DNA from: Capsulimonadaceae bacterium
Lineage (GTDB): Bacteria; Armatimonadota; Armatimonadia; Armatimonadales; Capsulimonadaceae
Assembly: GCA_965277455.1 (NCBI GenBank)
Contig: OZ255823.1
Location: 2,438,250-2,502,249 of the forward strand
Direction of reading: 5' to 3'
DNA length: 64,000 nt
Below, piece by piece: positions 4,997-44,004 of the stretch. The position numbers and the translations under genes were made by a program. A model generated the notes under the pieces. It did not search any database and was not told the origin of the DNA. It saw only the letters and a program-made list of their open reading frames with translations. Numbering within the stretch: position 1 is the first letter of the stretch; the number at the start of each line of letters is the position of its first letter.

Positions 4997-5050
4997 AGCT
5001 CTATTTTACCATATTCGGACGCCGGGCGCAAGGACAAGAGAGCGCAAGAA

Positions 5051-5070
5051 CGAGGGGTTTTAACCCCTCG
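5051..5070. promoter_or_regulatory. Perfect 9+9 palindrome in the divergent intergenic region upstream of recQ
   Basis: CGAGGGGTT-TT-AACCCCTCG, lying between the divergent genes 4388..4996 and recQ. Confidence 0.35.
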
Positions 5071-5114
5071 TGCCTATGGTATCTATCACAGCCACGGAAG
5101 GACAACAAATTATT

Positions 5115-7818: not shown

Positions 7819-7869
7819 GGGGGCGTACTTAGATTGAAATTACTTTAAACACGCAGTTGAGGAGAATGT

Positions 7870-8490: not shown

Positions 8491-8494
8491 GCGC

Positions 8495-8534
8495 AAAAAA
8501 AAACCGCCGGGGCAGTTCTCGCTGTCTCGGCGGT
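8495..8534. terminator. Second hairpin terminator (T9 on minus strand; also 13 nt downstream of the plus-strand gene 7870..8490)
   Basis: A9 run, then ACCGCCGGGGCAG...CTGTCTCGGCGGT. It reads as a hairpin plus T9 on the minus strand and may act in both directions. Confidence 0.5.
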
Positions 8535-8654
8535 CGCCTCTCACGCTGGCTTCAACACCTGGGTTTTGGGCCGGGAGCGGCAAGGATAAGGAGATCACAT
8601 TTATCTGACGCCGCCGGGCGACCAAATGTTCCCTTTGCGCCCAAGCCAAAGCCG

Positions 8655-8691
8655 TAAAAGAAAAGCCGCCGCCTGGGTTCAGGCGGCGGCT
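8655..8691 (-). terminator. Intrinsic terminator after 8712..9569
   Basis: Stem AGCCGCCGCCT / AGGCGGCGGCT with loop GGGTTC. On the minus strand it is followed by TTTTCTTTTAC. Confidence 0.7.
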
Positions 8692-8711
8692 GTTTTGCTG
8701 CGGAGACGCGA

Positions 8712-9569
8712 TTAAAGGGTGCTGAACGTGGCGGCATGGGCACTGTCGCCAGTCCCGGCAGCGCTCGGCAGGGACTGCGACGGTGTCCCGTAGGGATTGC
8801 CATAAGGGACGTTGTTTGCGCCTTGTACGTCGTTTTGCTGGAGAGCACTGGGTCCAGGCGAAATCGCCGCGCCGCGCAGCCATTTCACATGGCCGTCAGT
8901 CAGCAGGAAGTTCGAGCCATCGGTGTGGCGGCCTGTGGGCTTGTTATCAAAGTCGGTCAAGTTGGACGGGGTCACACCACCGAGGTAACCTGTAGCATAG
9001 TGCCAGATGCCATTGGCAAACTTGCCCACGCCGTCACCCGCGAAACCAACGCCTGCCGATCCTGCGTCCTGTGGGTAGCCACCATTGTTGTTGATGGATA
9101 AATCAGCGTCAATAGAGCGGTTCGTGTCTTCGAAGCAGAGGACCGTTGCAGCGGGAGAGTTGACCTGGGCTAGAGCAAATTTGGCACTGTCAGCGATGTT
9201 GGAGTTGATGCCATAGGACGACACCGTGTAGCCAGCGGTGCTGGGTGCCGTCGAGTCATCGGGGCACTTGAACAGGTCTTTGCTCTTGGCAAACGGATAC
9301 ACGCTGGGAACCCAGCCTGCGCCATGATTAGTGGGATAGGCTCCGGGGTACTTTTCGTCGGCATCCTGGGTGTACTGGATGATGGCGAGGCCAATCTGCT
9401 TCATGTTGGACTGGCAGGAGGCGCGGCGGGCGTTCTCGCGGACCTTCTGGAAAACAGGGAAGAGAATTGCCGCGAGAATCGCGATGATGGCGATGACGAC
9501 GAGCAGTTCGATCAGCGTAAAGCCGAGGGCAGAGCGGCGCTTGACGCGGCGTGTGGGCAGAGAAGACAT
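8712..9569 (-). CDS. Prepilin-type N-terminal cleavage/methylation domain protein with DUF1559 (H-X9-DG) C-domain
   Basis: Trimmed to ATG 9567-9569 ([38 protein letters not shown]). C-terminal [17 protein letters not shown] is an H-X9-DG motif. Confidence 0.85.
9405..9524 (-). repeat. Near-identical 120-nt segment shared with 10495..10614 (prepilin N-terminal coding region)
   Basis: Both encode the identical 40 aa [40 protein letters not shown]. The nucleotide sequences differ at only a handful of positions by eye. Confidence 0.85.
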
Positions 9570-9696
9570 AGGGGTTCCTTTCAGGAAACAAGCCAGCCAA
9601 AATGGCCGGGTGAGGGTCTGTTTTAAGAAAGGCGCGTCATTGCGGGGAGGAGAAAAGTGCGGGAAAGAAAGCGTCTGTGCTTTGGTAGTACGCTTC

Positions 9697-9705
9697 AGTA
9701 TAGCA
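9697..9705 (-). promoter_or_regulatory. Extended -10 promoter (TGCTATACT) for prepilin gene 8712..9569
   Basis: Plus-strand AGTATAGCA at 9697-9705, in an AT-richer intergenic stretch. Confidence 0.35.
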
Positions 9706-9783
9706 CAGTTTCCGCAGTTTATATAAAATTGAGTGCCAAAAAGGAACTTGATTCTTGCCAGCTTTGCCAGACTGTACGCAAGC

Positions 9784-9820
9784 AAAGGCCGCGCCGGGGT
9801 GTATTCCAGGTGCGGCCTTT
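9784..9820 (-). terminator. Weak hairpin after 9838..10644
   Basis: AAAGGCCGC...GCGGCCTTT with a large loop and no clean U-tract. Confidence 0.3.
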
Positions 9821-9837
9821 CTGGGTGGACGCTAAGC

Positions 9838-10644
9838 TTATTTGATGCTGAATGTTCCGGCGAAATTACCGGTCGTCGAAGCGGTTCCAGCGGCCACGCC
9901 GCAGCCGTTGCTTTGCGGGTCGGTCGACTGGGCAGCATTGGGACCAGGCGAAACCTGTGAGCCGCGCAGCCATTTGACATGGCCGTCGGCAAAGCAGAAG
10001 TCCGAGCCGTCGGTATGCACCGGGGTTTTCAACAGCGCAGTGACATTGGCGCTGCTGCACGGCGGGTTGCCGAGGCCGACGGTGGCACTGGTTCCGTCGA
10101 CATATTTGGCCCCGGTAGTATAGTCAATGTAGCCCGCTCCCAGGGCGTCGCCACCGTTGGCGGCGGGCGAGAAGTTGCCCTGACCACCGCCGGTGTCTGC
10201 ATTGGGGTCCTGAATGTTGGCGACGCCGCCCTGCACTTCAGAGAGCAGAACGGTACTGGCGGGGGCATTGAGCTGGGCCAGGGTCGAGTAAGCCAGGTTC
10301 GGGTTGAACGCATAGGAGACGGGAACAAGGGTGCCGTTCGGGGAGGTCGAATCATCGGGGCACTTGTAGACGCCGGTGCTTTTGACGTAGGCGTAGACGC
10401 TGCTGCCCCACCCTACTCCGCCGGTGTTGGGCCGGGGAAACTGTTCATCGGCATCCTGCCCGTACTGGGTGAGAGCAAGGGCAAGCTGTTTTTCGTTGGA
10501 CTGGCAGGAAGCGCGGCGGGCGTTCTCGCGCACCTTCTGGAAGACGGGGAAGAGAATTGCCGCGAGAATCGCGATGATGGCGATGACGACGAGCAATTCG
10601 ATCAATGTAAAGCCGGAACGCGGCTTCGCGTGCGGATAAGGCAT
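9838..10644 (-). CDS. Prepilin-type N-terminal cleavage/methylation domain protein with DUF1559 (H-X9-DG) C-domain
   Basis: Trimmed to ATG 10642-10644 ([33 protein letters not shown]). C-terminal [17 protein letters not shown]. Confidence 0.85.
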
Positions 10645-10739
10645 GAGGGTATTCCTTTCAGCACAGGTCATGCGGTGTGCTGATACTTGCATACCCGGTT
10701 CAGAAAGGAACATAAACGCACGGTTAGCGCAGAGTTAGA

Positions 10740-12845
10740 TCACTGCCAGCCGGCTCCGGCGAAGTCGAAGCGGATTTTTTTAGCGCGGTTGGAGTAGTAA
10801 AAGACGAGGTCGCGTCCGAGAACGCGGCGGGTGACAGAGTATTCGACGTCGGAATAGCGGTCGTTCAGGTAGTTTTCGTAGGTTGTGGCGAGGCCGAGGC
10901 CCCAGTCAGGCGTGACGCGGTAAGTGGCCGAGGCGAACAGGCTGCGGTCGTTGAGCGGCAGGCCGTAGCCGCCGGAAAACGAGGTTTGCAGCCGCTTGAA
11001 GGGGGTCGCCTGGAAGGTGGCAGTCAGGCGGTGCTGCGAGGGCGAACGCAGGAGGGCGGCCAGCGCATCGAGGCCCCCGGCGGGTGTGCCGATCTGGGTC
11101 AGGAGGGGGTCATAGCGGTAAGTGTAGTTCAGGGCGAGCGAGTCGGACTGACGGAAAGTGCGTGTCAGGCCGAGGCTGGCGCTGACGGTGGGGGCGAACT
11201 GGTTGCGCTCGCCGCCCCACGCCTGGCCGACGGTGAGCGAGTTGGTAAAGACGGTGCGCTTGTCGAGATGCTGGGGCGCGGTGAAGAGGCGCAGGTCGAC
11301 GGATTTGGTGTTGATGGGCGTTGTCACTTTGGCGATTCCGGGAGCCTGCGAGGTCAGGGTGCCGGTCTGGACCGCGAAATCGGTGGTGTAGTTGACGCCG
11401 GAATGGCCGAATGCACGCGGGTTGGACTGGACATAGGCATTCAGGCTCAGGCTCTGGGCGCTGTAGCCGTCGAAGCCGGGGTCGTGGCTGCCGGCGGCGT
11501 TCAGGTTGAACGAGAAGCCGTTGAACTGGCGCGAGACGTTGGACGAGGCATACAGGCTGCGGTGCGAGGGATAGTCGACGAACAGGTAGCCGGTCGTGGT
11601 TTCGTCAAGCCGCTGGGTATGGCTCCACTGAGCGCCCCATTCAGAGCGGGTGATACCGGACACGAGGAACTGGCCCTGACCGCCCCGCCCCATCTGGTAA
11701 GTTTGTTCGAGGTCGAGCGCGAGGCCATGCCGGGCGGCGTGGCCGTTGAAAAAGCCGGTGCCGGAGGAAAGTGCTCCGCCGACATTTGCGCCGGTGACGG
11801 CGGCATTCCGCAGATAAATCGTGCCTTTGGAATGCGGGGTGACATTGTAGTAGTAGGGCAGATTGAGAAAGACGCCCTGGGAGCCGAAGCCGAGGAGCTG
11901 CTGGCCGAAAATCTGGGTGGAGTTCATCGGCATCACATGGTACGGGACCGAAAGCAGCTTTTTACCGTCGCTGTAGATGGTAGCGCGTCGGAACTGGACC
12001 TGATCGCCGGGGTCGGCGGTGATGGCGCGGGCGGAAACGACGACCCGGCTGTCGGAGAGGTCGACAAAGCGGAACGGATTGGATTGCAGAGGCAGCTCGG
12101 CGGGGTCGGCAACCTGGGGAGAGGTTTCAAGGGCCGTGCCGGTAATCAAAACGCTGGCGCTCTGGTCGGCAAGAATGGCGCTGCCGTTGCCGGTGAGCAG
12201 GTCATAGCGAAGCTCGGCGGCACGGACCTGATGGTGTCCCCGGCGGATGACGGCCCCGTGGGCAATGACGGTCTGGGTCTGCAAGTCGGCTTGCAGGCGG
12301 TCGGCATCGATCTGTATGGACTTGTAGGACAGGTGCGCGGAGCCGTTTTTGCCTTCGGCTTCAATGATGCGTGCGTCGGCGCTGTAGATCAGATATTGCG
12401 GGCAGTCCACGCGAATCCAGCGGGCGTCTTTGTCGAAGAGTGACTCGCGGTCAGCGGTGAACTCCACGGAGGCTGCGCCCGCAGAGGAGCCGTCGGAGGA
12501 GAGGCCGAAGGCGGCGGCGGTGACGGCGGCTTTGCCTTCCTGCGAGGCGGCGGTCAGCGAGACGCGGGCGACACCAGACGCGGTGGTAGCGATATCCGGG
12601 GTCAGCGTTCCGAGGGTGGTGGTGAAGCGGACGGAGGTTCCGTCCGGGGCGATTTTGCCGCCGCCGTCGCGGACGGTGGCGGTGATAATGGTTGTGCTTT
12701 TGCCGTCGGCATAGATGACGTCCGGGGTGGCGGACACGGTGACGCTGGCCTGTCCGCCTGCCCGTGCAGGCGCGGTGAGGCGCGGGGCAGCGGTCAGGAG
12801 AAGGAGCAGAAGCGCAGTCAGAAGAGGCCGGGTGGGGTAGAGCAT
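10740..12845 (-). CDS. Outer-membrane beta-barrel protein, LptD/OstA-like, with N-terminal bacterial Ig-like (Big_1-type) domain
   Basis: Signal peptide MLYPTRPLLTALLLLLLTAAPRLTAPARA. Ig-like segment VTVSATPDVIYADGKSTTIITATVRDGGGKIAPDGTSVRFTTTLGTL. OstA-like segment AEGKNGSAHLSYKSIQIDADRLQADLQTQTVIAHGAVIRRGHHQVRAAELRYDLLTGNG. The last ~400 aa have alternating beta-strand character rich in Y/G/N/T, ending FDFAGAGWQ. Confidence 0.55.
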   Translation of the reverse strand: MLYPTRPLLTALLLLLLTAAPRLTAPARAGGQASVTVSATPDVIYADGKSTTIITATVRDGGGKIAPDGTSVRFTTTLGTLTPDIATTASGVARVSLTAASQEGKAAVTAAAFGLSSDGSSAGAASVEFTADRESLFDKDARWIRVDCPQYLIYSADARIIEAEGKNGSAHLSYKSIQIDADRLQADLQTQTVIAHGAVIRRGHHQVRAAELRYDLLTGNGSAILADQSASVLITGTALETSPQVADPAELPLQSNPFRFVDLSDSRVVVSARAITADPGDQVQFRRATIYSDGKKLLSVPYHVMPMNSTQIFGQQLLGFGSQGVFLNLPYYYNVTPHSKGTIYLRNAAVTGANVGGALSSGTGFFNGHAARHGLALDLEQTYQMGRGGQGQFLVSGITRSEWGAQWSHTQRLDETTTGYLFVDYPSHRSLYASSNVSRQFNGFSFNLNAAGSHDPGFDGYSAQSLSLNAYVQSNPRAFGHSGVNYTTDFAVQTGTLTSQAPGIAKVTTPINTKSVDLRLFTAPQHLDKRTVFTNSLTVGQAWGGERNQFAPTVSASLGLTRTFRQSDSLALNYTYRYDPLLTQIGTPAGGLDALAALLRSPSQHRLTATFQATPFKRLQTSFSGGYGLPLNDRSLFASATYRVTPDWGLGLATTYENYLNDRYSDVEYSVTRRVLGRDLVFYYSNRAKKIRFDFAGAGWQ

Positions 12846-12926
12846 AAAAAAGTCGTCTCAGCCGGGGTCTAGAAGCCCCCGGCGATTACGTGGTGCAATG
12901 ACGGAGAGAGATTAAATTGAGAGAGA

Positions 12927-13931
12927 TTAAGTGGACGGTGCGCCAGGCGGCAGGATTGTTCCACCTGTTGTGCCGGTTCCGGTGCCAATAGTCCCCTGTC
13001 CCAGATTGGGCGGCGCGGGGATGCCGGTTCCGGTTGTTGTCGTTGTCGTTGTCGTCGTCGTTGTGCCCCCGCCTCCCCCGCCGCCGTTGTGGTGATGGTG
13101 ACCGGACGCAATAGCGAGGCCGATGCCGACGGCGACCAGGACGCCAATTAGAATGGAGCCAATGTGGTTTTTCTTGCCGTGCTTGACGTCAGCGGGCGCG
13201 GCGGCTTGCCTCTGCGGTGCCGCCTGGGCGTTCAGCGCGGAAACGACATGGCCGGCGGCATCGTTGACGGCGCTTTGCAGCAGAGTATTCGGGTCGTCCG
13301 CAGCGTTGAACGAGACGCCGTGGCCGGTGTAGGCCAGCACTTTGACAGGAGCGCCCGTGGTCGTGTTGTAGAGGGTCGCGCTGACGGTCAGGTTGACGCT
13401 GCGCGTTTTGGGGTCCTGCGATAGTGCCTCGACGGTTCCGAGCAGGTAGCCATCGGTCCCGACTTCGTCGGTGATGCGCTGTGCGGTCGCCCCATTGGTG
13501 TACGGGGGAACCAGATCATTTTCGGTGACGCCCTGGCCGGTGGCGCTTGGCTCGCTCAGCGCCCGCTGGATTTGGGGCAGACGGGGCGAGAAAGAGCTGG
13601 CCTGGTAGCGGCCAATGGTGTTCAGACGCATCTTGACGGCTTCTTCGACCTGTGCGCCGACGATGTCCGGGTCGAAGCCCGAGTTGGAAGCTCCCGCAGG
13701 CATCGTGTTGGCGAAGGGGAACAGCAGGACTGATTTAATCCGGGTCGCCTGCATGGGTGCCGTGGGAAAGCGGATGACTGCGGCAGAGGCCGAAGGCGAC
13801 GCGGGTGCAACGGGTGCGGGGTCCTGCGCCTGTGCGGCGCTCGTGAGGATGGTCCCCGGCGGCAGCAGAAATGTTGCCGTCAGGGCGAATGCCACCAGAC
13901 GCTTGAGAGATGTGTGTTGAGTGAATGTCAT
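12927..13931 (-). CDS. Secreted/membrane-anchored protein with CsgG/LpoB-like N-domain, one C-proximal TM helix and a His-Gly-Thr homopolymer tail
   Basis: Trimmed to ATG 13929-13931, with SD GGGGAG upstream. Signal peptide LVAFALTATFLLPPGTILTSAAQAQ. Domain pattern IKSVLLFPFANT...VEEAVKMRLNTIGRYQASSFSPRLPQIQRAL...GTDGYLLGTVEAL. TM helix IGSILIGVLVAVGIGLAIASG. Tail HHHHNGGGGGGGTTTTTTTTTTT. Confidence 0.45.
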   Translation of the reverse strand: MTFTQHTSLKRLVAFALTATFLLPPGTILTSAAQAQDPAPVAPASPSASAAVIRFPTAPMQATRIKSVLLFPFANTMPAGASNSGFDPDIVGAQVEEAVKMRLNTIGRYQASSFSPRLPQIQRALSEPSATGQGVTENDLVPPYTNGATAQRITDEVGTDGYLLGTVEALSQDPKTRSVNLTVSATLYNTTTGAPVKVLAYTGHGVSFNAADDPNTLLQSAVNDAAGHVVSALNAQAAPQRQAAAPADVKHGKKNHIGSILIGVLVAVGIGLAIASGHHHHNGGGGGGGTTTTTTTTTTTGTGIPAPPNLGQGTIGTGTGTTGGTILPPGAPST

Positions 13932-13952
13932 AGTGTAGTTTCTCCCCACGCC

Positions 13953-16226
13953 CTAATAGCGGGACCGGTGCTGGTTCTGCTGCCGTGCCCGTGCGCTGCT
14001 CGACAGCAGTGCGCTGGACAACGTCGTCGCGCCGCCGTTCAGGTTGACCGGCAGGGGATCGTTGAAGATGTATGGGTTATCGTTCTCCGAGCTGCCGTTC
14101 AAGAGGTCTCGTGCGCCGACGCGGTAGAAGAACTGGGTGGCGTTCGGGAAGGCGGTGGTCAGATCGATATTGTTGAAAACGACCGCCGTGCCATTGGCCG
14201 TGCTAATGCCCCCATTGATGTTGGTCGGGTCTGTAATGGGTGCATTGTAGGAGCCAGGCTGGGGGGCAAACCGGCGAGCATTGGCAAAACCAGGGTCCGT
14301 GGAGATTTCCAGAACGTAGTCAGTTCCGCCGCGTGTGGCGGGGATGGTGAAGTTGACGTTGTTCAGGCCGGTCCCTGTGGCGGCGTTAGCGAACGGCGTC
14401 ACCGGCTCAATGAGGGTGATGTAGTTCGTGCTCCGCAGGCCGGTAAGCTGGTAGGTCTGATCATGCCCGAAGGTGGTCCCGGTGTTGTTGTTGGTTCCGG
14501 TGTTGTTGTTGTTGTTGTTGGTTCCGCTGTTGTTGTTGTTGGAGCTGTTGTTATTATTGTTGTTGTTGTTGCCGTTCGTATTGTTGTTATTGTTGTTGTT
14601 GTTGCCGTTGTTGTTGCCGTTGGTTCCTGGGTTCAGAATGCCGGTTCCAAAAGTGGCGGGCTGGAGGTACAAACCTTCCACCTGGTAAAACACGCGCTGG
14701 CCGAGGGCAAGCCCTGTGCCGGGGATGGGTGCTCCCACGGTGATCGTTCCGGTAGTGGTGGTGGTCGCGGTGGTCCCTACCGTGCTGGCAGTGACGGTCA
14801 GAAGCTGAGTGTTGTCGGTGATGTCAGGCTTGGAGGCGCTGATGGAGGTGATGCCGACTGGCCCATCGTAGACAAGCAGGTTGCCATGCCCGGACTGGGC
14901 CAGAAGCGGCACCTGTCCGAAGCTGAAAGTGCTAGTGTTGGTGGTAGTGGTCGTGTTATTGTTGCTGCTGCCGCCGCTCTGGGTCGCCGTGACGCCGAGG
15001 GCAGCCGGGCTGGACAGGGATACCGGAGCATCGCTGCGGTAGACGTGATATTCCAGGAAGTTGTTCGGGTTGATGTTGCCGACATCCGAGGTGATTTTCA
15101 CGGCGACGGGGATGTATCGATCCTGGGGCAGACTAATTCCGGTCGGAACCGTGGTGCTCTGTGCGCCGCCGACGAGGGTAGCGCGTCCGGCCTGAGCATG
15201 GGGTCCCTGAACGGCGGCCCCGCCCAAGGATTGACCGTGGCCCTGCCGTACAGCAGAGACGATCAAGGCTCCGGCGATGAGAGCAACCAGAATGCCACCG
15301 ATTCCGCTGAAGACATTACGAGAGGCGGCATGCGTGGGCGTGTCCGAGGACACGTCTGCACTGCTGGCGGTCCGAAAGGAGCCGACGCTTTTATCGATGC
15401 TGTAGGAAGGCAGCTCGTAAATGGCCGTGGCCCGGTCTTCGGGGCGGATACCCTGGCCCTGATCGGTCACCACGGCATTGGCGTCGTTGTTGCTGACATC
15501 GGAGACTTTGATAGTGCCGGTGACGACGCCGTTGCGGGTCACGATCATGTTCAGGCCGTCGTAAAGACCGTCGCGGGAGCCTTTATTGAGAGTCACGGAG
15601 TTCACGCCGCGTCCGATGAGGACGGTAGCGACGGGCAGGTTGAACTTGCTGATCTGCTTGACGGCGTTGAAGGCGGCATTGCCGAACGCTTCGTTGACGA
15701 GCGACTCTTCATCGGTGACGGGGATAGGCCGCACATTGGAGCTGCCCTCGGCCAGAGCGCCGTTCAGGAGGTAGCCCGAGCGCGGGTCGATAACGCGCAC
15801 GACGAGGCTGACTTTGGCCTGGCGGCGGTCCTGGGAGAACGACACCGAGGAGATTTCGCCGGCCACGATGGCATTGACGCCCAGCGACTGCCCGACTTTT
15901 TCAATGGAAGTCAGGTTCAGGGGTGGGGTCAGGTTGTCGTTGGTAATGGCATTCAGGAGGTCCTGCCGGGGAGTGACGGCATAGCGGTTCAGCTTTGCCA
16001 GCTCCACGACAAAGGAGTCGGCGGCCAGCCGCCCGACATCCGTGCTGCCGTAGCCGGAGGGGTTGGCGAAGTCCAGAACCGCCCAGGAGGGCAGGGTCCG
16101 GGACAGGTCCTGAGCCTGCGCTCTCGGCGAGCCGACCAGGAAAAGAGCCAGTACGGGCAGGGCCATCAGCAGCGACATCAGAACACTGATGGGCTGTGCG
16201 CTCCAATGCTGTTTGAAATGTTTCAC
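13953..16226 (-). CDS. Single-pass envelope protein: CsgG/LpoB-like domain, small beta-barrel domain, TM helix, then Thr/Asn-linked beta-sandwich domains
   Basis: GTG start with AGGAGG 11 nt upstream. Signal peptide SVLMSLLMALPVLALFLVGSPRAQAQ. Domain pattern SWAVLDFANPSGYGSTDVGRLAADSFVVELAKLNRYAVTPRQDLLNAI...GVNAIVAGEI. TM helix FSGIGGILVALIAGALIVSAV at aa ~306-326. A ~54-residue Asn-dominated tract lies at aa ~532-585. Confidence 0.45.
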   Translation of the reverse strand: MKHFKQHWSAQPISVLMSLLMALPVLALFLVGSPRAQAQDLSRTLPSWAVLDFANPSGYGSTDVGRLAADSFVVELAKLNRYAVTPRQDLLNAITNDNLTPPLNLTSIEKVGQSLGVNAIVAGEISSVSFSQDRRQAKVSLVVRVIDPRSGYLLNGALAEGSSNVRPIPVTDEESLVNEAFGNAAFNAVKQISKFNLPVATVLIGRGVNSVTLNKGSRDGLYDGLNMIVTRNGVVTGTIKVSDVSNNDANAVVTDQGQGIRPEDRATAIYELPSYSIDKSVGSFRTASSADVSSDTPTHAASRNVFSGIGGILVALIAGALIVSAVRQGHGQSLGGAAVQGPHAQAGRATLVGGAQSTTVPTGISLPQDRYIPVAVKITSDVGNINPNNFLEYHVYRSDAPVSLSSPAALGVTATQSGGSSNNNTTTTTNTSTFSFGQVPLLAQSGHGNLLVYDGPVGITSISASKPDITDNTQLLTVTASTVGTTATTTTTGTITVGAPIPGTGLALGQRVFYQVEGLYLQPATFGTGILNPGTNGNNNGNNNNNNNNTNGNNNNNNNNSSNNNNSGTNNNNNNTGTNNNTGTTFGHDQTYQLTGLRSTNYITLIEPVTPFANAATGTGLNNVNFTIPATRGGTDYVLEISTDPGFANARRFAPQPGSYNAPITDPTNINGGISTANGTAVVFNNIDLTTAFPNATQFFYRVGARDLLNGSSENDNPYIFNDPLPVNLNGGATTLSSALLSSSARARQQNQHRSRY
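14472..14633 (-). repeat. AAC/AAT-rich trinucleotide tract encoding a ~54-residue Asn-dominated linker
   Basis: The plus strand reads GTTGTTGTTGTT... with short interruptions. The protein reads NPGTNGNNNGNNNNNNNNTNGNNNNNNNNSSNNNNSGTNNNNNNTGTNNNTGT. Confidence 0.9.
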
Positions 16227-16278: not shown

Positions 16279-19200
16279 TTAATTGCCCGTCGGGATTTGA
16301 AGCGTCACGTCGGTATATACTCGTATCCAGTAGGCCGTCCAGGGCTGGAGTGTATCGGTGGGCGAGACCGGCTGGTAGGCCGTTCCGTCGTAGCGGTACA
16401 GCGTCGGCGAGATCAGGTGGAAGCTCGCGCCAGAGGCATCCGCGAAGCTGCGGGTGACACCGTCGCTGCCCACGAAGTTCAGACTGGAAACGGCAGTTCC
16501 CTTGATATTGGGCACGCCGATCTGGTTCCAGGCCGGATGCAGAGCGACGCTGACGATTCCAGTGGGCGTCGTGCCGGTCTGCGTCACCGCCGTCGAGTTT
16601 TTCAGGAACACCCAGTAGCCGACACCGAGGCGCGGGGCATCGGCGGGGGCGGTCGGGTCCAGCACGTAGCTGGAAGCGACGGGGTCCCACAAAGCGACGT
16701 GCGAGCGGTTGCCGGGCGTCGTGGCTGTGTTCAGCGTGCCAAACACGCCGTCGAAGCCAAGCGATGCGTAGTTGTACGGCAGGGACACGAACTGGAGACC
16801 TGCCGGGAACGTATGCACGGCGGGCAGGCCGGTGATGCCGCTGAAGTCCAGCCGGGTGAACGTGCTCGCCGTGACGGAGACCGTCTGCGGCGCGGTGGAG
16901 ACGCCGCCCCGGCTGGCGGTGACGGTGTAGGTCCCCTGAGCCAGCGTGATCGGGCCGTAGTTGAGCGTGCCGCCGTCGGGCGCGGTCACGGCAGTCGCCG
17001 TGGAAGTCGCCGTCTTGACTGCTCCGGTGCCGGAGTTGGTAACGGTGATGGTCGCGCCTGCCAGCGGGGAGGCCCCGGAGGTGGACAGGACGAGGCCGCC
17101 GAGTGTGCCGTTGGCAACAGCGCCCAGCACAAGGTCTGGGGCGACGACGGAGGTTCCGCCGACAGCCTGCACGGTGGCGACGGCATTGCCGAAGCCGGTG
17201 GCAGTGGCGGTCAGCGTGTAGCTGCCTGCCGGGACTGTCGCCGTATAGGTTCCATCCGACGCCGTGGTCGCGGTCATGGCGACCGTGGCGGGGCTGCCCG
17301 AGGTGAAGATGACCGAGGCATTGGCGATGCCAGTGCCGGAGGCATTGATGACCCGGCCTGTGACGACGCCGGTGGCGGCGCTCAGGACGAAATTCGCCGT
17401 TGACGCCGCGCTGGCGGTGATGGTGACGCTTTGGGGCGTCGATGCACCGTAGACGGGCGGGAAGCTGGCCGTGCCGCTGTACATCCCGGCGGGGATGGTC
17501 GGCAAGCTGTAGACTCCGTTGGCATTGGTCGTGGCGATCTGCGCGGTTCCGCCCCCGGCGGGGTTGAATGTGACGGTCGCCCCGGCGATCAGGTTGCCCG
17601 AGGCGTCCTTGACCGTGCCGCTCAGAGTTCCGGGCGCGGCAGGCGACAGCGTGAGGCTGGCGCTCTGCGTGGCATCGCCTTCGACGGTGAACGTGTTGGT
17701 CGTGTTGGACGTGGTCCGTGCGAAGCCGTTTTTGTAGGCCGCGACGGTGTAGGTTCCGGGTTCTACGCCGGTGATGGTATAGTTGCCGGTCGAGTCCGAC
17801 GTGGCGCTGAAGGTGCCGCGTCCGGGGATGGTGGTCCCGTTGGAGGACACAAGATAGACAGTCGCACCGCCGATGCCTGCGCCGGAGCTGCCGTTGCCGG
17901 AGGTGGAGCGGATGGTTCCGCTGACGGTTCCGGTCCGCAGGTAGCAGACGATGTTGTGCATCATATTCTGGCGCTGATTGTGCGGGAAGTAGAACCGTGT
18001 CGCCGGGTTGCCGATATCACGCGAGTAGTAGTCGGTCGAGATGCCCTCAAAGCCGAAGGAGGCGTAGACGACTTTTGCGCCTGTGCCGCCGGTGGCGGTG
18101 TCAGAGTAGTAAACCAGTCCGTTGCCGCCCGGCGAGTTAGCCGCACCGGGGTCGCCAATGGTGTTGCTTCCATAGACATTGTTGAACGGGTTCAGCACGA
18201 GGTCTGTGTGGGAGCTGGTTTTGGACGCTGCGATGGTGTCGATCTGGCTGACGACCGAGTTGCCCTGGCCGCCGCTGTTGGAGACGCCGAATGGAGTCGC
18301 ATACGGCCCGAGCTGATCGAGAGAGCCGTCGGTGCGCCAGAACGGAACCTGATCTTTGTGGAAGTAGGTGTCTCCAAAGACGTTGCCACCGATGTTGTTG
18401 CTGATCGTGATCGGATTTTGGAAGGGAGCAACGAAATCCTGACCATTGGCTGTATTGACCTGGAAGAAGTTCATCCGGGCCTGCCCGTCGAAGAAGGCGA
18501 CGTTGGAAATCCGGTTGTTTGCGGCGTCGCCGCCGCCGGTGGCATTGTGCGTGCCCTTGTTTCCAGTGACCAGAGTGGCCCCGAGGACATCTGAGAGGAA
18601 GCCTCCTGCCGCGTTGCCCGTGGTTCCGTTCTGCGTGATGGATGAGCCGACATCCTGGCCGGTCATAAACAGGCGTCCCCCTGCTTTGACGAAGGTGCGG
18701 AGCGAGGTCTGCGTGGCGGGGTCGGTGATGGTTCCCGGTCCGACAAGCAGGTCCCCGGCGAAGGGGGCGCTCCAGACGATGCAGCGAGGGGCAACTGTTA
18801 CCGCCGGTGCAGCAGGGAATGTGACGGCGGGCGTGACAGTGCTGTCCGAGACGGCGGGCTGCGGCGTGGTGGTCGGCTCGTAGCTCTGGAACAGCGAGTC
18901 AGGGACAGGGCCGCGTGACAGGGTGCGCCAGATGCTGTACCGCTGCGATTTGACTGCTGGGACACCGTCAACGGTCTGACCGTCGTCGATGTTGGCATCC
19001 GCGTAGGAGCCGACGCCGAGGCCATTGAGCTGGCTTGTTACTCCATAGCCCGATGCGCTCACGCCATCGCTGTCGTTGAGGGTAGCGAGCTGCACCGCCA
19101 GGGTGATCGGGAACTTGCGTCCGGCGATGACCCGTGACACATAGGTTGTGTTCGGCATCAGGCTGATGTCGATGTCGGTCAGATAGGACTCGGCCCCGTA

Positions 19201-22200
19201 GAACTTGGGAACGAGGTTGACCAGGCTGTTCTGGCCGCCGAACGTCGTGCCGGCGAACTTCTGGCCCAGGGCATAGTCGCTCACGAACAGAATGTCGTTC
19301 GTGCCGATGTCGCGCAGGGTGCTGAAGCCCCAGACGTTGTCGTAGATGCGGAAGTTGGAGCGCTCGCCGGAGAAAGGGGACGTGCCGCCCGCGAAATTCG
19401 GGAACACGGCCTTGTCATAAGCGATGACGTCCAGGTAGAAGTCGCTGCCCGAGGCAGGCGGGGTCCAGGTGACAGAATACAGAAGGCCGCCGCCGCCGTC
19501 CTGCTGGGCAGCAGGCAGGCGGGTGAGCTTGAGCCACTCGGCGGGGCGGAACACGGGGGTCGTGACCAAGATGCCTTTAGTGGTCGTGGTGGTGACGTTC
19601 GTGGTCGAGTTCACGGTCGGGCGCGGCGGGTGACCGTTGCCGAACGTGGACTGTGTGAGCGTTTGCGACTGGTCATTCACCTTCGTTCCGGGAATGAGCG
19701 TCACATCGTTGAGCGGTGTCGAGCCGCGCTCGTTGACGCTTGCGGTCTGAACGTTTGTGCCGTATCCAGGCAGCGTGGTCGTGACCCGGTACTGACCGGG
19801 GGCGAGGGTCACCGTGAAGTTGTTTCCATTGGCATCCGGTGTGGCGGAAGAGATGAGCGGCGAGGGCGTGGTTGCCACAGTGGCACCGGTGAAATAGTCG
19901 GTGATGGTGATGGTCGCACCGCCGACGGGATCGCTCCCACTTTTATCGGCTCTCTGAGCAGAGATCGTGCCGGTCAGGGTACCGGCGGCGGGGAAGCCGC
20001 TGAAGGCCCGCTGGTCGTCCACACCGGCCAGATAGTAGGGGTTGGTGTAGTCGGCTGGCGACGCATCGGTGACAGTCCCATTGGGGTTGTTGGCGTAGTC
20101 GGGGTTAAGCGCCTGTGCCTCATATTCCTGCCCGGAGGGGACGAAGAACTTGGGATCGAAGCCCTGCGGGATGTTCGGGTTGCCTTTGGCGTCCACCAGA
20201 GGCTTGCCGTTGTCGTCGGTAGTGATCGGGTTCTTGCTGTTCTGGTTGGCAACCGGGGTGATGCCGACGGAGATGGACTCGCCGCCTGTGTCGACCCCGG
20301 CAACCGCGCCCCGCTGTGCTTGGGGGCCGCCAAGATCATTGGTGAAGTAGTTGTACCCGGACGCATTCAGGCCGCCGTTGTAGAGCAGGCTGGAAGAGCC
20401 GCTGTCGGGGTTGTTCCGGTTCGGATTGTTGCCCTGAGTGGCGTAAGAGGGGTCATGCGTGAAGACTTTATGCTCCAGCCGCAGGGCATCCTGGTACTTG
20501 GAGTCAGGGTCTTTGATCTGAACATAGACGTTGTTGTCGTCTACGCCTGCTTCCCGGTCGCTCAGCCGGACGGTCATGGTCATGGGACGACCGCCTGTAA
20601 GGTTAGCCCGTGACTGCACGCCGTTCTGGTCAGCGATGTGGACGACTTCGCTGCCGCTGTAGGGCACGAGCGTCGGCGGGTCGAGGTTCAGCACCTGCGA
20701 CTCGAAGATGCCGGTGTAGTTCGCGCCGACAACGCCGCCGCCACCGAGCGGCTGGCCCTGGGGAACGGAAATGGCCGTCTCAGAGGGCCGGTTCGTGACC
20801 GGACTGTTGTAGGTGACGCTGCGGTTGGATGAATAGGCGATGCTGAACAGGGTCAGGCCGGGTGCCCATGTCGGGTACGCATCTTCGTACTGGCCGCCGA
20901 CCGAGGCCACCGCGTTATCGTCGGTGTTGAGCTTGACGGCACCGTTGTTTCCGGTCCCGTCTGTCTGAGCGCCTTCGGGGGTCAGCGTCTCGTTATAGAC
21001 GGCAGTGACCTGGTAGTAATATTCGACGCCGTTCGTGACCTGCGTGTCCGTGATGAACGTATTTTGCACGTTGGTCAGGAACGGCACATTGCCTTCCTGG
21101 CCGGACCCTTGAACGGTGCGGTAGATGTTGTAGTAGGACGGCGTGCCGTTCTGCGAGAAGAAATTCAAATTGACAGCGCCGTCGCTGCCGGTGACACTGT
21201 TCAGGATCGGCGCGATGCTGTTCTGATTGAAACCGTTCTGGAAGTAGCCGTTTGCACCCAGACCGCTGCTATCGGAAGCGTTCGGGCTGGACAGGATTTC
21301 GATGCCCTGGGCAATCGGGGGGTCACCGCCGTTTGCCTGGGGGGCAAAAGCGACGTTGATGTTTCCATTGAAATCGCTGAAAGTCTGGATGTCCACCACG
21401 ACGGCGGTGTTCTGGCCGACGACGGCGGCCTGGCTGACCAGCGGAGCATCCTGGCGCACGAAGGCGTTGGCGGGCGGCCCGGCGGTGTTGACGACGGTAA
21501 CAGGCTGCGGCTGCGAGGTGAAGCCGGGCGCGATGAACTGAACGGTATAGGCCCCGGTCGGGAGGCGAGCCAGGTAGTTCAGCGGCTTGGCGTCGCCGTT
21601 AGGAGCAGCGGGCGAGGACGTCGCTGTGGTGGTGCGCGTCAGGGCAACAACGGCAGCGCCCTGCTGCACTTCCACGAGCACGCCGCCGAGGGGCTGGGCG
21701 GAGACGGAGTTCGTGACAAGCCCGCCGAGGGTTCCGACGGCGGCTCCCGCTTGCAGAACGAAGTTCGTCGTGGTCGCTGCGCCAGCGGTGATGTTGACAA
21801 CCTGTGTCAGAGTCTGGTAATTGCCAGTCGGCTCTGCCGTGACGTAGTAGGAGCCGACGGGGAGGGTCAGGGAGTAGTTCCCGCCAGCAACAGTGGCAAA
21901 CGGGCCGGGGATATTCGCGCCAGGCGTTCCATTGGGTCCGACGGCAATCACGGTCAGTGGGATGTTAGAAAGCGGCGTGCCATTGGAAGACACCGTGCCC
22001 GTGGCGGTTCCGGTGGCCTGGGTCAGCGCGAAGTCCGCACGGACGACCGCGCCGCTGCTGACATTGAGCGTCCGGGACTGCGCCGGGTAGCCGGTCGCGG
22101 TTACGGTGATGGTGTACAGGCCCTGCGGAAGCTGCGTGTCGTAGTTGACGTTCGCGCCGCCGTTGGGGTCCGGGGTAGTCGGAGTGGTCGTCGTGAGCGG

Positions 22201-24162
22201 GTCGGGCGTCGTGGTGACGGCCTGCCCGGCCGAGTCGGTGATAGTGATTGTCGCTCCGGCCAGAGGAGTGTTGGTGGCGGAGTCGGTGACGACGCCGTCG
22301 AGGCGTCCCGGCGAGGTCTGCGCGATCTGAACGATATCAATGGGTATCGTATTCCCATTGGCATTGACAGTAAACAGACGCTTGCCGACGGCGGTGTTTT
22401 TGTTGTCGGACAGGTGCAGGCGCACAGTGTACTCGACGTCCGGCGTCAGGTTGGAGAACGCATAGTTGAAGGTGCCGTTGCGGTCGGTGTTGTAGATCGC
22501 AGGCGGGGCGGTCGGGTCGGTGACGGTGTTGGTGGCGACCGCCGGGGTGATGGTCTCCGCCGTGCCGCCGTTTGCGACGACGCCCGCTGTGGTGGCGTCC
22601 GAGGTGAACGTGTTCGCGCCATTCGAGACGGTCGGACCGCCCGCGTTGACCCGGTAAACCGGCGTGCTGGCGGCCAGGGGAGTGGTGGCGGCTTCATTGG
22701 AGCGGCCGGTCTCGCCGCTTGCATCCACGTTTCGCAGGACCTGAAGGTAATAAATGTCATGCGCGGAGGCGGGCGAGGAGCCGCGTGAGAAGGCCAGATA
22801 CTCTGCGCCCGGCGCGGGATTCAGGTAGGCATTGCGGTTCAGCGACGACCAGGCGGGGCCGTAGTTGTCGGTTCCGGCGGTCGTCAGCGGCTTGCCCGCA
22901 AGAGTGATGCTGCCGAAGGCATTGCTGCGTGCGCCGCCGCCAAGCAGGAACAGGCTGCGGTTGCTCCGGGGAGTGGCGGTCAGGGTCAAGGTCTGGTCGA
23001 GCCGTCCGCCGGGCTGCTGCCCGGTCTGGCTGATGGTGGTGGCAGTGGACGAGAACGCGATAAACTGGGCATCTGCCGAGTAGGCCGGGTCGGTGTCGTC
23101 GGCGGGGCCATCAGTGATTTTGGCAGGCAGGGACGGGTTGGACGGGTCCGAGCCGCCGGTTCCAGTGTACAGGTAGTACAGGTGGAAATGGCCGTTATAG
23201 GCGGTGTTGGAGCCGCCCGTGGTGAGTGCTGCGAAGACGATCTCATCGGGCCGTCCGGCAAAGGCGGGGCGTCCGACCTGCGAGAAGCCGGTTCCGCCTG
23301 CGCCGACCGCGAAGCCATCGTTACGGACGGTCAGCGAGGACGGGCCGTTTGCGGTGGTGTCGGAGACGTTCACCGTGGTCGGGCTGAACTGGATGCGGTA
23401 CAGGTTCTGGGTTCCGGGCGTCTGCGCGTCGGAGGTGAATGCGAGGTACTGGTTGTTGCCGCCACTGAGGGCCGGGAAGAACTCGCCTTTCATCGTGCCG
23501 GGGGCAGTTCCGCCAGCGCTCAGCCCGGTGCTGCTGGTGAGCTGAACCGCTGCGCCGCCATTGACGGGGATGGCCCAGATATGGAAGCGGCCATCAGCCT
23601 GAATGCCGCCGTTGATGGTCCGGTTGGAGGAAAAGACGATCATCGTCTCGTCCGCCGTCCAAACTGGGTTCAGGTTAGTCGCGGTCAGCGAAGCAAGCTG
23701 CCCGGTCGGGGGCGCAAACGCAGGCGCGGGGTTGTTGACGTCAAACGTCTGCACCGCTTCGTTGACCAGCGGCGTGCCGGCGGCGGCGCTGGGGCGCAGG
23801 AGAGCGCCGGAAAGTCGGCGCACGGCGGCCTGCTGCGCCGCGTTCTGGCCGGTCAGCGAGGGCCGGTCATAGATATAGCGGCCATCGCTGCCCCGGCGCG
23901 GGCCGGAGGTGGCTTTGACGGTGGCAGGAAAAGCCACCCGGACGGCAGACAGGGCCAGCGCCTGCCCCAGCCCATGATGGATGGGTGCGGGCGACGCGCC
24001 GAGCAGACCTGCGGCCAGAGCCACAGTCGCCGCCGCAGCGGTGCCGGTCAGGGCGGGCTTGACGGTGCTGGACTTAAAGGCGCTGGACTTAAAGGCGCTG
24101 GATTTGAAGGCGCGGAAAGAAGACAGGGCGGCACGCAAAGATAGGGGACGTAGTGCTTTCAA
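16279..24162 (-). CDS. Giant secreted multidomain protein B (2,627 aa): PD40 propeller, malectin-like domain, CarboxypepD_reg-like repeats, Fn3-like domain, unnamed ~1,000-aa core, conserved C-terminal module
   Basis: TTG start (24160-24162) with GAGAGG 10 nt upstream. Hydrophobic leader TAAAATVALAAGLLGA. PD40 repeats: VWTADETMIVFSSNR, DGPADDTDPAYSADAQFIAFSS. Malectin-like segment YRVNAGGPTV...FNYAFSNLTPDVEYTVRLHLSD...GKRLFTVNANG. About 8 repeats of the type GTLSGTVKDASGNLIAGATVTF...NGVYSL..IPAGMY. It is a paralogue of 24414..32195. Confidence 0.75.
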   Translation of the reverse strand: MKALRPLSLRAALSSFRAFKSSAFKSSAFKSSTVKPALTGTAAAATVALAAGLLGASPAPIHHGLGQALALSAVRVAFPATVKATSGPRRGSDGRYIYDRPSLTGQNAAQQAAVRRLSGALLRPSAAAGTPLVNEAVQTFDVNNPAPAFAPPTGQLASLTATNLNPVWTADETMIVFSSNRTINGGIQADGRFHIWAIPVNGGAAVQLTSSTGLSAGGTAPGTMKGEFFPALSGGNNQYLAFTSDAQTPGTQNLYRIQFSPTTVNVSDTTANGPSSLTVRNDGFAVGAGGTGFSQVGRPAFAGRPDEIVFAALTTGGSNTAYNGHFHLYYLYTGTGGSDPSNPSLPAKITDGPADDTDPAYSADAQFIAFSSTATTISQTGQQPGGRLDQTLTLTATPRSNRSLFLLGGGARSNAFGSITLAGKPLTTAGTDNYGPAWSSLNRNAYLNPAPGAEYLAFSRGSSPASAHDIYYLQVLRNVDASGETGRSNEAATTPLAASTPVYRVNAGGPTVSNGANTFTSDATTAGVVANGGTAETITPAVATNTVTDPTAPPAIYNTDRNGTFNYAFSNLTPDVEYTVRLHLSDNKNTAVGKRLFTVNANGNTIPIDIVQIAQTSPGRLDGVVTDSATNTPLAGATITITDSAGQAVTTTPDPLTTTTPTTPDPNGGANVNYDTQLPQGLYTITVTATGYPAQSRTLNVSSGAVVRADFALTQATGTATGTVSSNGTPLSNIPLTVIAVGPNGTPGANIPGPFATVAGGNYSLTLPVGSYYVTAEPTGNYQTLTQVVNITAGAATTTNFVLQAGAAVGTLGGLVTNSVSAQPLGGVLVEVQQGAAVVALTRTTTATSSPAAPNGDAKPLNYLARLPTGAYTVQFIAPGFTSQPQPVTVVNTAGPPANAFVRQDAPLVSQAAVVGQNTAVVVDIQTFSDFNGNINVAFAPQANGGDPPIAQGIEILSSPNASDSSGLGANGYFQNGFNQNSIAPILNSVTGSDGAVNLNFFSQNGTPSYYNIYRTVQGSGQEGNVPFLTNVQNTFITDTQVTNGVEYYYQVTAVYNETLTPEGAQTDGTGNNGAVKLNTDDNAVASVGGQYEDAYPTWAPGLTLFSIAYSSNRSVTYNSPVTNRPSETAISVPQGQPLGGGGVVGANYTGIFESQVLNLDPPTLVPYSGSEVVHIADQNGVQSRANLTGGRPMTMTVRLSDREAGVDDNNVYVQIKDPDSKYQDALRLEHKVFTHDPSYATQGNNPNRNNPDSGSSSLLYNGGLNASGYNYFTNDLGGPQAQRGAVAGVDTGGESISVGITPVANQNSKNPITTDDNGKPLVDAKGNPNIPQGFDPKFFVPSGQEYEAQALNPDYANNPNGTVTDASPADYTNPYYLAGVDDQRAFSGFPAAGTLTGTISAQRADKSGSDPVGGATITITDYFTGATVATTPSPLISSATPDANGNNFTVTLAPGQYRVTTTLPGYGTNVQTASVNERGSTPLNDVTLIPGTKVNDQSQTLTQSTFGNGHPPRPTVNSTTNVTTTTTKGILVTTPVFRPAEWLKLTRLPAAQQDGGGGLLYSVTWTPPASGSDFYLDVIAYDKAVFPNFAGGTSPFSGERSNFRIYDNVWGFSTLRDIGTNDILFVSDYALGQKFAGTTFGGQNSLVNLVPKFYGAESYLTDIDISLMPNTTYVSRVIAGRKFPITLAVQLATLNDSDGVSASGYGVTSQLNGLGVGSYADANIDDGQTVDGVPAVKSQRYSIWRTLSRGPVPDSLFQSYEPTTTPQPAVSDSTVTPAVTFPAAPAVTVAPRCIVWSAPFAGDLLVGPGTITDPATQTSLRTFVKAGGRLFMTGQDVGSSITQNGTTGNAAGGFLSDVLGATLVTGNKGTHNATGGGDAANNRISNVAFFDGQARMNFFQVNTANGQDFVAPFQNPITISNNIGGNVFGDTYFHKDQVPFWRTDGSLDQLGPYATPFGVSNSGGQGNSVVSQIDTIAASKTSSHTDLVLNPFNNVYGSNTIGDPGAANSPGGNGLVYYSDTATGGTGAKVVYASFGFEGISTDYYSRDIGNPATRFYFPHNQRQNMMHNIVCYLRTGTVSGTIRSTSGNGSSGAGIGGATVYLVSSNGTTIPGRGTFSATSDSTGNYTITGVEPGTYTVAAYKNGFARTTSNTTNTFTVEGDATQSASLTLSPAAPGTLSGTVKDASGNLIAGATVTFNPAGGGTAQIATTNANGVYSLPTIPAGMYSGTASFPPVYGASTPQSVTITASAASTANFVLSAATGVVTGRVINASGTGIANASVIFTSGSPATVAMTATTASDGTYTATVPAGSYTLTATATGFGNAVATVQAVGGTSVVAPDLVLGAVANGTLGGLVLSTSGASPLAGATITVTNSGTGAVKTATSTATAVTAPDGGTLNYGPITLAQGTYTVTASRGGVSTAPQTVSVTASTFTRLDFSGITGLPAVHTFPAGLQFVSLPYNYASLGFDGVFGTLNTATTPGNRSHVALWDPVASSYVLDPTAPADAPRLGVGYWVFLKNSTAVTQTGTTPTGIVSVALHPAWNQIGVPNIKGTAVSSLNFVGSDGVTRSFADASGASFHLISPTLYRYDGTAYQPVSPTDTLQPWTAYWIRVYTDVTLQIPTGN
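24064..24123 (-). repeat. 15-bp tandem repeat encoding (AFKSS)3 in the leader of giant B
   Basis: Plus strand GGTGCTGGACTTAAAGGCGCTGGACTTAAAGGCGCTGGATTTGAAGGCGCGG. Protein SSFRAFKSSAFKSSAFKSST. Confidence 0.85.
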
Positions 24163-32195: not shown

Positions 32196-32419
32196 GACGG
32201 ATACAACCTCCCTGGTTGTGCGCGGCTCTCGGGGGGAGCGGCCAAGAAACGATGCGTTGAAAAACGATACAGTGAAGCGCGGTGAATGGATACTCACGAA
32301 AAAGCTCTCTTTGAAAAGGACGGTTAATGTCAACGGGCAGCCGAAACGGTGCCGGGCACGAAGCAAGTATTGGGGGGTAAACAATGCAATTTTGTGGCCC
32401 TGAAACTAAGGGATGAGTG

Positions 32420-43964: not shown

Positions 43965-44004
43965 AAATATCGCGCCTGTTTTTCTGCCGTTTTTCCTGGC
44001 CGTC

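Follow-up and report, generated by a model that had tools for sequence, protein, structure and literature searches.

In a 64,000-nucleotide stretch of high-GC chromosomal DNA from a Capsulimonadaceae bacterium (contig OZ255823.1, positions 2,438,250 to 2,502,249; hereafter the window), two genes for very large secreted proteins, giant A and giant B, are followed on the same strand by genes for three smaller proteins, which we call A, B, and C (coordinates in Table 1). Judging from sequence comparison and a predicted structure, C belongs to the LptD superfamily but has diverged beyond the reach of current family models. A and B share a periplasmic alpha/beta fold and have one strongly hydrophobic helix each, and both giants end in the same domain, here called ctdW. 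The reading that we tentatively favor is that proteins carrying ctdW are displayed or exported by a barrel of the LptD family together with helix-anchored partners of a ring type. What the cluster suggests is either an undescribed machine for display at the outer membrane or a lipopolysaccharide (LPS) translocon that is free of lipoproteins; a display function and a housekeeping LptD function are compatible with each other. What is new in the arrangement is the unusual set of LptD partners and the client domain, the LptD kind itself being already known.

Gene linkage and the ctdW domain

The three genes lie 3′ of the 2,627-residue giant on the minus strand, as the first-pass annotation of this DNA had placed them, with gaps of 52 nucleotides (nt) between giant B and A, 21 nt between A and B, and 81 nt between B and C. 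The open reading frame (ORF) of B extends from 12927 to either 13931 or 13949, giving 334 or 340 residues. Homologues of A, B, and C are found almost exclusively in Armatimonadota and mostly in Capsulimonadaceae, Capsulimonas corticalis being a named relative. A profile built from 12 closer C sequences and run over genome contigs located 28 genome loci, one per genome in 28 assemblies. The order giant-A-B-C holds at all 24 loci with sufficient upstream sequence, down to 45% identity in C. Six loci at which C is 27–34% identical, for example that of an Armatimonadaceae metagenome-assembled genome, hold the same components; their large proteins are S8 peptidases, FlgD_ig proteins of ∼1,000 residues, and giants of 1,800–2,500 residues. 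A second set of 23 metagenome loci was chosen by ctdW instead of by C. Here A lies directly downstream of the ctdW gene in 20 cases; in the remaining three the downstream flank is too short to tell, and the ctdW gene looks like the leading member of two giants in tandem. The search patterns used for ctdW are specific and would have passed over ctdW genes that have diverged and lie in other parts of these genomes. The synteny of the trio with homologues of the giants, which the earlier annotation had proposed as a check, is thus seen at every informative locus, including those with C at ∼30% identity, and the module appears to be conserved throughout the phylum.

Each of the two giants of the window has ctdW as its final 183 residues. 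All large proteins of these clusters carry the domain irrespective of what stands N-terminal to it, the S8 peptidases included; in distant Armatimonadota lineages it is followed by an extra C-terminal module with an FlgD_ig domain. Sequence and profile comparisons of ctdW with Pfam and the PDB returned no match. It is a previously undescribed domain that ties the giants to the A-B-C trio. A conserved C-terminal domain combined with variable N-terminal regions is a mark of clients, and it is because the giants show this combination that we read them as such. In the middle of giant B (∼19000–20500, minus strand), a segment ILFVSDYALGQKF ... GGRLFMTGQDVG resembles GATase1-like or DUF4159-type domains by eye and has no Pfam match.

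The closest parallel for this client architecture is the cargo of the type IX secretion system (T9SS), which likewise consists of diverse large secreted proteins, S8 peptidases among them, with a common C-terminal beta-rich domain; the FlgD_ig-like domain behind ctdW in distant loci adds to the likeness. However, no T9SS components were seen, ctdW matches none of the T9SS C-terminal domain models, and the cargo genes lie inside the machinery cluster here, whereas T9SS cargo genes are scattered over the genome.

The barrel protein and its two partners

Protein C had been described in the first-pass annotation as an Ig domain, an OstA-like jellyroll, and a large LptD-type barrel, and all three parts were recovered. 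Pfam detects the Ig domain (residues 34–131) as Invasin_D3, with 39.2 bits against a cut-off of 33; Big_1, at 34.3 bits against 34.9, falls just under its own. Nothing else in C is matched by Pfam, PF04453 giving no match even at E ≤ 1, and no NCBIfam LptD model was matched; the NCBIfam LptA signal is weak (E = 0.026). Among 45 diverse members of the C family, the Ig domain (Invasin_D3) is kept in 44, an LptD_N signal (E = 0.005) appears in one, and the Pfam LptD model PF04453 is reached by none. The family comprises 283 clusters at 50% identity (E ≤ 1e-30), its best 150 matches all have the identical layout, and its terminal residue is aromatic.

It is the family profile and the predicted structure that place C with LptD. 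Compared with the PDB, the profile matches LptD of Neisseria gonorrhoeae (7omm; E = 5e-6 to 7e-6) over the latter half of the jellyroll and on into the first strands of the barrel. The most conserved motif of the family, GFGSQGVFLNLPYYYNVTPHSKGTIYLRN (residues 319–347), stands opposite VPYYFNLAPN of the N. gonorrhoeae protein in the profile alignment. The family consensus GsqGlalnvPyYysvsP is aligned with GSDGVSLSVPYYFNLAPN of LptD, and vPyYysvsPkstgtlylR also aligns with PYYFNLAPNYDATLYPR of Pseudomonas aeruginosa LptD. C accordingly retains the first-strand, lateral-gate motif of LptD (xPYYxNxAPxxD); in LptD, the first barrel strands form the lateral gate. The AlphaFold2 model of C has a mean predicted local distance difference test (pLDDT) score of 76.6, mostly 75–90 in the barrel, and consists of the Ig domain, the jellyroll, and a barrel of ∼385 residues that begins at residue 317 and in which ∼22 strands were counted. 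When this model was compared with the PDB by Foldseek, the top 15 matches were all LptD (E = 3e-16 to 2e-11), and the alignments to full-length LptD spanned 650–830 columns. Foldseek, the profile match, and the weak sequence signals agree on an N-terminal beta-jellyroll of the OstA/LptA type.

It is useful to contrast C with the LptD-LptE translocons of Escherichia coli, Shigella, Pseudomonas, and Neisseria. Like them, C combines a jellyroll with a large C-terminal barrel, has the aligned PYY motif, and is encoded alongside a partner. Unlike them, it has an N-terminal Big_1/Invasin_D3 Ig domain and an apparently shorter barrel (its ∼22 predicted strands compare with 26 in LptD), lies under all Pfam and NCBIfam LptD thresholds, and is genetically tied to giant proteins. 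Moreover, no LptE is present; the putative partners A and B have another fold, are apparently anchored by helices, and are not lipoproteins.

The first-pass annotation had credited A and B each with a signal peptide, one transmembrane helix, and homopolymer tracts, and this description stands. Their N-terminal signal-peptide-like regions both end in AQAQ, and a search of the A, B, and C sequences for a lipobox cysteine found none. Each has a single strongly hydrophobic helix (Kyte-Doolittle > 2.5), at residues 305–326 in A and 257–277 in B; the tracts are poly-N and poly-T in A and H4-G7-T11 in B. In A, the n-region of the signal peptide (16130–16226, minus strand) is conserved as KxxKxHWSAxP[LI]S down to ∼40% identity, which exceeds the need of a plain Sec signal. 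In B, the His run directly after the helix (13089–13100, minus strand; residues 278–281) is HHH or HHHH throughout the family and is followed by Gly/Ser/Thr-rich and Pro-rich tracts.

The same annotation assigned both proteins to a CsgG/LpoB/TolB-N type, which is right as to the fold. In Proteobacteria, the TolB-N/CsgG/PelC/LpoB/FlgT fold is typical of lipoproteins that form rings or funnels under the outer membrane. A reaches 23.0 bits against Pfam CsgG (PF03783; gathering threshold 20.8), its residues 48–151 corresponding to profile positions 12–140 of 210, and a precomputed CsgG match is carried by some A homologues only. Pfam returns no match for B, whose alpha/beta domain is homologous to that of A by hhalign (probability 97.7%, E = 2.5e-12). 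The AlphaFold2 model of A (pLDDT 70.6) contains the alpha/beta domain (residues 47–194), a small beta-barrel (199–268), the transmembrane helix (309–328), and, beyond the helix, two confident beta-rich regions with disordered linkers between them. Foldseek ranks FlgT first for A (3w1e, 8z5n; E ∼1e-11, ∼275 aligned columns, ∼14% sequence identity), followed by GNA1162, CT253, TolB-N, CsgG, PelC, and LpoB; no LptE chain is among its top 50 matches. Sequence-profile searches of A and B against the PDB gave nothing. On the evidence of the model, A seems nearer to FlgT than to CsgG, and both A and B appear to be without the barrel-forming hairpins of CsgG. An LptE-like or LptY-like identity of A and B was considered and rejected: the fold is of the FlgT/PelC/LpoB type, whereas LptY is lipocalin-like (PMC12644819).

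Each of these fold relatives resembles the module in part. FlgT, of the Vibrio flagellar H-ring, has a TolB-N-like and a small beta-barrel domain that match the first ∼275 residues of A, and it forms a ring in the periplasm at the outer membrane. However, flagellar genes are absent both from the window and from those related loci with gene calls that were examined, and A has in addition its helix and a C-terminal extension of ∼430 residues. CsgG, the curli channel, is a lipoprotein whose subunits each supply two beta-hairpins to a 36-stranded pore and which works with the csgE and csgF products. A shares its alpha/beta fold and lies just over the Pfam threshold, but is not a lipoprotein and shows no membrane-inserting hairpins in its model, and no csg genes, csgE and csgF included, occur in the neighborhood. 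In PelB-PelC, an outer-membrane barrel is likewise joined to a periplasmic partner with the alpha/beta fold of A and B, PelC forming a 12-mer funnel under the barrel (9h80, 5t10/5t11). PelC, by contrast, is a small lipoprotein without a helix or surface domain, the PelB barrel is unrelated to LptD, and the substrate is a polysaccharide.

Possible functions of the module

Under the display or export reading, C would be a BAM-inserted barrel of the LptD superfamily with a periplasmic Ig domain, a jellyroll slide, and the LptD motif at its first strands. A and B would be paralogous periplasmic proteins in which a hydrophobic helix replaces the lipid anchor. Their alpha/beta domains would sit under the barrel, and the parts exposed on the exterior would be, in B, the Thr/Asn-rich tail and, in A, the beta-rich C-terminal region. 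The giants, along with the S8 peptidases and other large proteins of distant lineages, would be clients whose ctdW docks on the A/B/C complex, and they would be either exported through the complex or held by it at the surface. The jellyroll and lateral gate of C may also insert the helical anchors of A and B. We infer four elements of this scheme: that the helices lie in the outer membrane, that a ring forms, that ctdW physically touches the complex, and which way transport runs. Genes that are adjacent across a phylum usually encode proteins in contact, and we favor a complex of A, B, C, and the giants because of the phylum-wide adjacency and the client-like architecture of ctdW proteins. A dedicated apparatus for the giants had also been the working hypothesis of the first-pass annotation; the strong synteny and the common ctdW domain speak for it, as arguments from gene context.

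Two bodies of published work bear on this scheme. The diderm Terrabacteria, Armatimonadetes included, are without Lol and without all outer-membrane lipoproteins, LptE too (PMC11784454; bioRxiv 10.1101/2021.05.31.446380), and it is because Armatimonadota belong to this group that we read the helix as a substitute anchor. Furthermore, LptDE and a Borrelia LptD homologue have been reported to carry proteins with lipid anchors outward to the cell surface (E. coli LptDE-YifL; Borrelia BB0838; bioRxiv 10.1101/2022.12.21.521298, 10.1101/2022.12.25.521893), a precedent in which the polypeptide is threaded through the lumen and its anchor exits sideways. The anchors there are acyl chains, not an alpha-helix, and in Armatimonadota such a passage would be hypothetical. 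The most far-reaching version of our reading, in which an LptD-type barrel inserts the alpha-helically anchored A and B into the outer membrane and exports or anchors ctdW clients, would make the module an undescribed system, an offshoot of the LPS pathway that handles protein; we regard this version as rather doubtful.

Several observations weigh against a display or export function. Alpha-helical outer-membrane anchors are rare, and the helices of A and B could sit in the inner membrane instead. The helix of A is retained in the homologue at locus L030; that of B is not universal, being absent at L030 and C-terminal, with no tail behind it, at L029. B itself was not detected at L033 or L035. 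The TM-scores of the C model to LptD are low (∼0.3), and the contact of ctdW with A, B, and C is deduced from gene context. A conserved hairpin before C, described below, argues against simple uniform cotranscription, and C may be transcribed in part on its own. The breadth of the C family and its apparent single copy are the pattern expected of a housekeeping LptD. Lipid A genes are present in Armatimonadota (PMC5007114, PMC4072686), so that an LPS translocon is needed, and the surface-protein role of Borrelia LptD is disputed (PMC11784454).

The last points lead to the most serious rival, which we consider rather unlikely: C is the housekeeping LptD orthologue, that is, the LPS translocon of Armatimonadota. 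A and B would then be non-lipoprotein accessory subunits in LptE-type roles such as plugging, assembly, or LPS handling, and the giants, not being transported by C, would adjoin it for a looser reason, for example as LPS-bound surface or S-layer-like proteins or as co-regulated envelope genes. C keeps the signature motif and the jellyroll-plus-barrel fold, its broad family has a single locus per genome in the 28 assemblies, and a terminator-like hairpin separates it from the upstream genes. Armatimonadetes have lpxA-D among their lipid A genes, terrabacterial Lpt systems lack LptE and are therefore expected to have unknown partners, and bona fide LptD is known to have accessory subunits particular to a lineage, LptM and LptY for example (PMC12644819). 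Indeed, it is quite possible that C is the sole lptD of the genome, because lipid A is made, LptE is absent from diderm Terrabacteria, and the family looks single-copy and phylum-wide. On the other hand, the predicted barrel seems to fall short of the 26 strands of LptD, none of the family members compared scores high enough for the Pfam LptD model, A and B are not LptE-like in fold, and the phylum-wide tie of ctdW proteins to A, B, and C is left unexplained. No lptA, lptC, lptB, or lptFG adjoins C in the loci with gene calls that were examined. This is weak evidence, because E. coli lptD is likewise unlinked from those genes.

Two further explanations appear improbable. One is that the module exports a polysaccharide or glycolipid, the C barrel and a PelC-like A/B funnel acting as in PelB-PelC and the giants binding or processing the glycan. 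PelC and PelBC are among the Foldseek matches of A, giant B has a malectin domain, genes for a GT4 glycosyltransferase, a GFO/IDH/MocA oxidoreductase, and a major facilitator superfamily (MFS) transporter lie upstream in the window, and a GFO/IDH/MocA gene and murB adjoin C at L030. But the structural likeness of C is to LptD and not to glycan porins such as PelB and Wza; the loci hold no polymerase, flippase, or synthase genes; and the glycosyltransferase neighbors are particular to the window, the distant loci examined being without them save for one gene 3′ of C at L035. The other explanation, which we likewise hold to have little chance, takes A and B simply for type I proteins of the inner membrane, the alpha/beta domain lying in the periplasm and the low-complexity C terminus in the cytoplasm. 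They would tether or regulate something at that membrane, and their link to C and the giants would be regulatory or trans-envelope. A cleavable signal peptide with one very hydrophobic helix is indeed the textbook stop-transfer topology, and a conserved Arg or Lys comes after the A helix. In B, however, the basic cluster (KHGKKNH here, KKKRK at L029) is N-terminal to the helix and so falls on the periplasmic side, contrary to the positive-inside rule. The region of A beyond the helix consists of confident beta-rich domains and Thr/Asn linkers and includes the motif EYHVYRSD, which presumably resembles bacterial fn3-like domains; features of this sort are typical of extracytoplasmic proteins. 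In addition, the fold relatives CsgG, PelC, LpoB, and FlgT work at the outer membrane. The placement of the basic patch and the extracytoplasmic-looking tail of A thus argue, if not decisively, against a plain inner-membrane stop-transfer topology.

The module may be relevant whichever of the LptD functions applies. The Bam and Lpt machineries of diderm Terrabacteria must function in the absence of lipoprotein subunits that E. coli cannot do without, and by what means they do so is an open question (PMC11784454). The cluster supplies testable candidates: a divergent LptD-family barrel and two putatively helix-anchored proteins with the fold of the PelC/CsgG/LpoB lipoproteins. Should C be the LPS translocon, LptD would have in A and B its first candidates for non-lipoprotein partners. 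If C is a specialized paralogue, the module would represent a new route for very large proteins to the bacterial surface, with ctdW as a new sorting or anchoring domain. In either case, it would bear on the existence of alpha-helical anchors in LPS-containing outer membranes and on the debated handling of protein by LptD.

Transcription and surroundings of the cluster

The first-pass annotation had reported no hairpin-plus-U-tract between the genes. This is correct for the giant-A and A-B gaps, which hold no comparable hairpin or T-run, but not for the B-C gap. There, a 7-bp all-GC hairpin (GCCGGGG, a 9-nt loop, CCCCGGC; −21.7 kcal/mol, z = −2.5) is present, and T6, 9 nt farther on, immediately precedes the ATG of C; a simple terminator scan is blind to the hairpin owing to the loop and spacer limits of the scan. 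In almost every lineage a GC-rich hairpin lies just 5′ of the C homologue, at loci L001, L002, L007, L008, L011, L017, L018, L029, and L032–L036 as well, with differing sequences, and in distant loci it is canonical, with a T-run behind it. Because this hairpin or terminator is conserved, C is probably expressed less than the giants, A, and B, or in part on its own. The element suggests attenuation or mRNA stabilization that keeps transcripts of A, B, and the giants well in excess of those of C.

Table 1. Positions of the cluster, its parts, and adjoining features in the window
Feature	Position	Strand	Description
Giant A	24414..32384	-	2,656-residue ORF; secreted multidomain protein; PD40, CarboxypepD_reg (×7), SpaA/SdrD_B-like; C-terminal ctdW 24486-25052
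Giant B	16279..24162	-	2,627-residue ORF; PD40, malectin, PEGA, CarboxypepD_reg (×7); without membrane anchor; C-terminal ctdW 16282-16830
ctdW of giant B	16282..16830	-	∼183 residues; motifs GxGYW, GWNxIGxP, LxPWxGYWI
Protein A	13953..16226	-	757 residues; signal peptide; TolB-N/CsgG/PelC-type alpha/beta domain 15645-16088; small beta-barrel domain 15423-15632
Protein A, helix	15249-15314	-	
Protein A, beta-rich C-terminal region	14037-15209	-	Broken by poly-T and poly-N linkers
Protein B	12927..13931	-	334 residues from ATG at 13931; 100% identical to database protein P0193
Protein B, alpha/beta domain	∼13224-13739	-	
Protein B, hydrophobic helix	13101-13163	-	Also in B: KHGKKNH basic patch; H4-G7-T11 and Pro-rich tail
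B-C intergenic region	12846..12926	-	7-bp GC hairpin, then T6, before start of C; position kept in relatives
Protein C	10740..12845	-	701 residues; signal peptide; Big_1/Invasin_D3 Ig domain 12453-12746; LptD-type beta-jellyroll ∼11928-12416
Protein C, barrel	10758-11897	-	∼22 strands predicted; LptD signature GFGSQGVFLNLPYYYNVTPHSKGTIYLRN at 11805-11891
Two prepilin-type genes	8712..10713	-	DUF1559/H-X9-DG; 9838-10713 and 8712-9992
Terminator	8664..8691		Strong, bidirectional; 12-bp stem with 10 GC pairs; after second pilin gene, opposite convergent AhpC/TSA-like gene
MFS transporter gene	32519..33985	-	Upstream neighbor of first giant; conserved in Capsulimonadaceae

Downstream of C, the two prepilin genes are probably cotranscribed with the module here, and the terminator behind them is likely the 3′ end of the transcription unit. 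The first-pass annotation had left open whether these prepilin/DUF1559 genes belong to the module; they were rejected as members, being present only in the closest relatives (L001, L002, and L036). An apparent conserved fifth gene 3′ of C (ORF 7840–8883, minus strand) was likewise discarded as an Arg-rich antisense artefact, the real gene being the AhpC/TSA-like ORF at 7870–8490 (plus strand). The same holds for the Arg-rich ORF at 5001–6056 (minus strand), which is antisense to a RecQ-like helicase gene with DEAD, Helicase_C, and RecQ_Zn_bind domains (5070–7079, plus strand). On the other side of the cluster, an MFS gene also lies directly 5′ of the first giant at L022, L024, L041, L044, L046, and L055 (54–63% identical), and it may be part of the same unit as the giants.

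Elsewhere, the gene content of the window includes purD, an intein-containing dnaB, mlaFED, penicillin-binding proteins, and the DUF1559 prepilins. The replicative helicase gene dnaB (39633–41711, minus strand) is split by an intein with Intein_splicing and Hint domains at residues ∼417–608. An ORF for an Eco57I/N6_Mtase-type DNA methylase (51813–53468, plus strand) may belong to a restriction-modification element. In the mlaF-mlaE-mlaD cluster (42390–45644, minus strand), MlaD is unusually long, at 556 residues, and recalls the long MlaD that reportedly serves as a trans-envelope bridge in the diderm Firmicute Veillonella.

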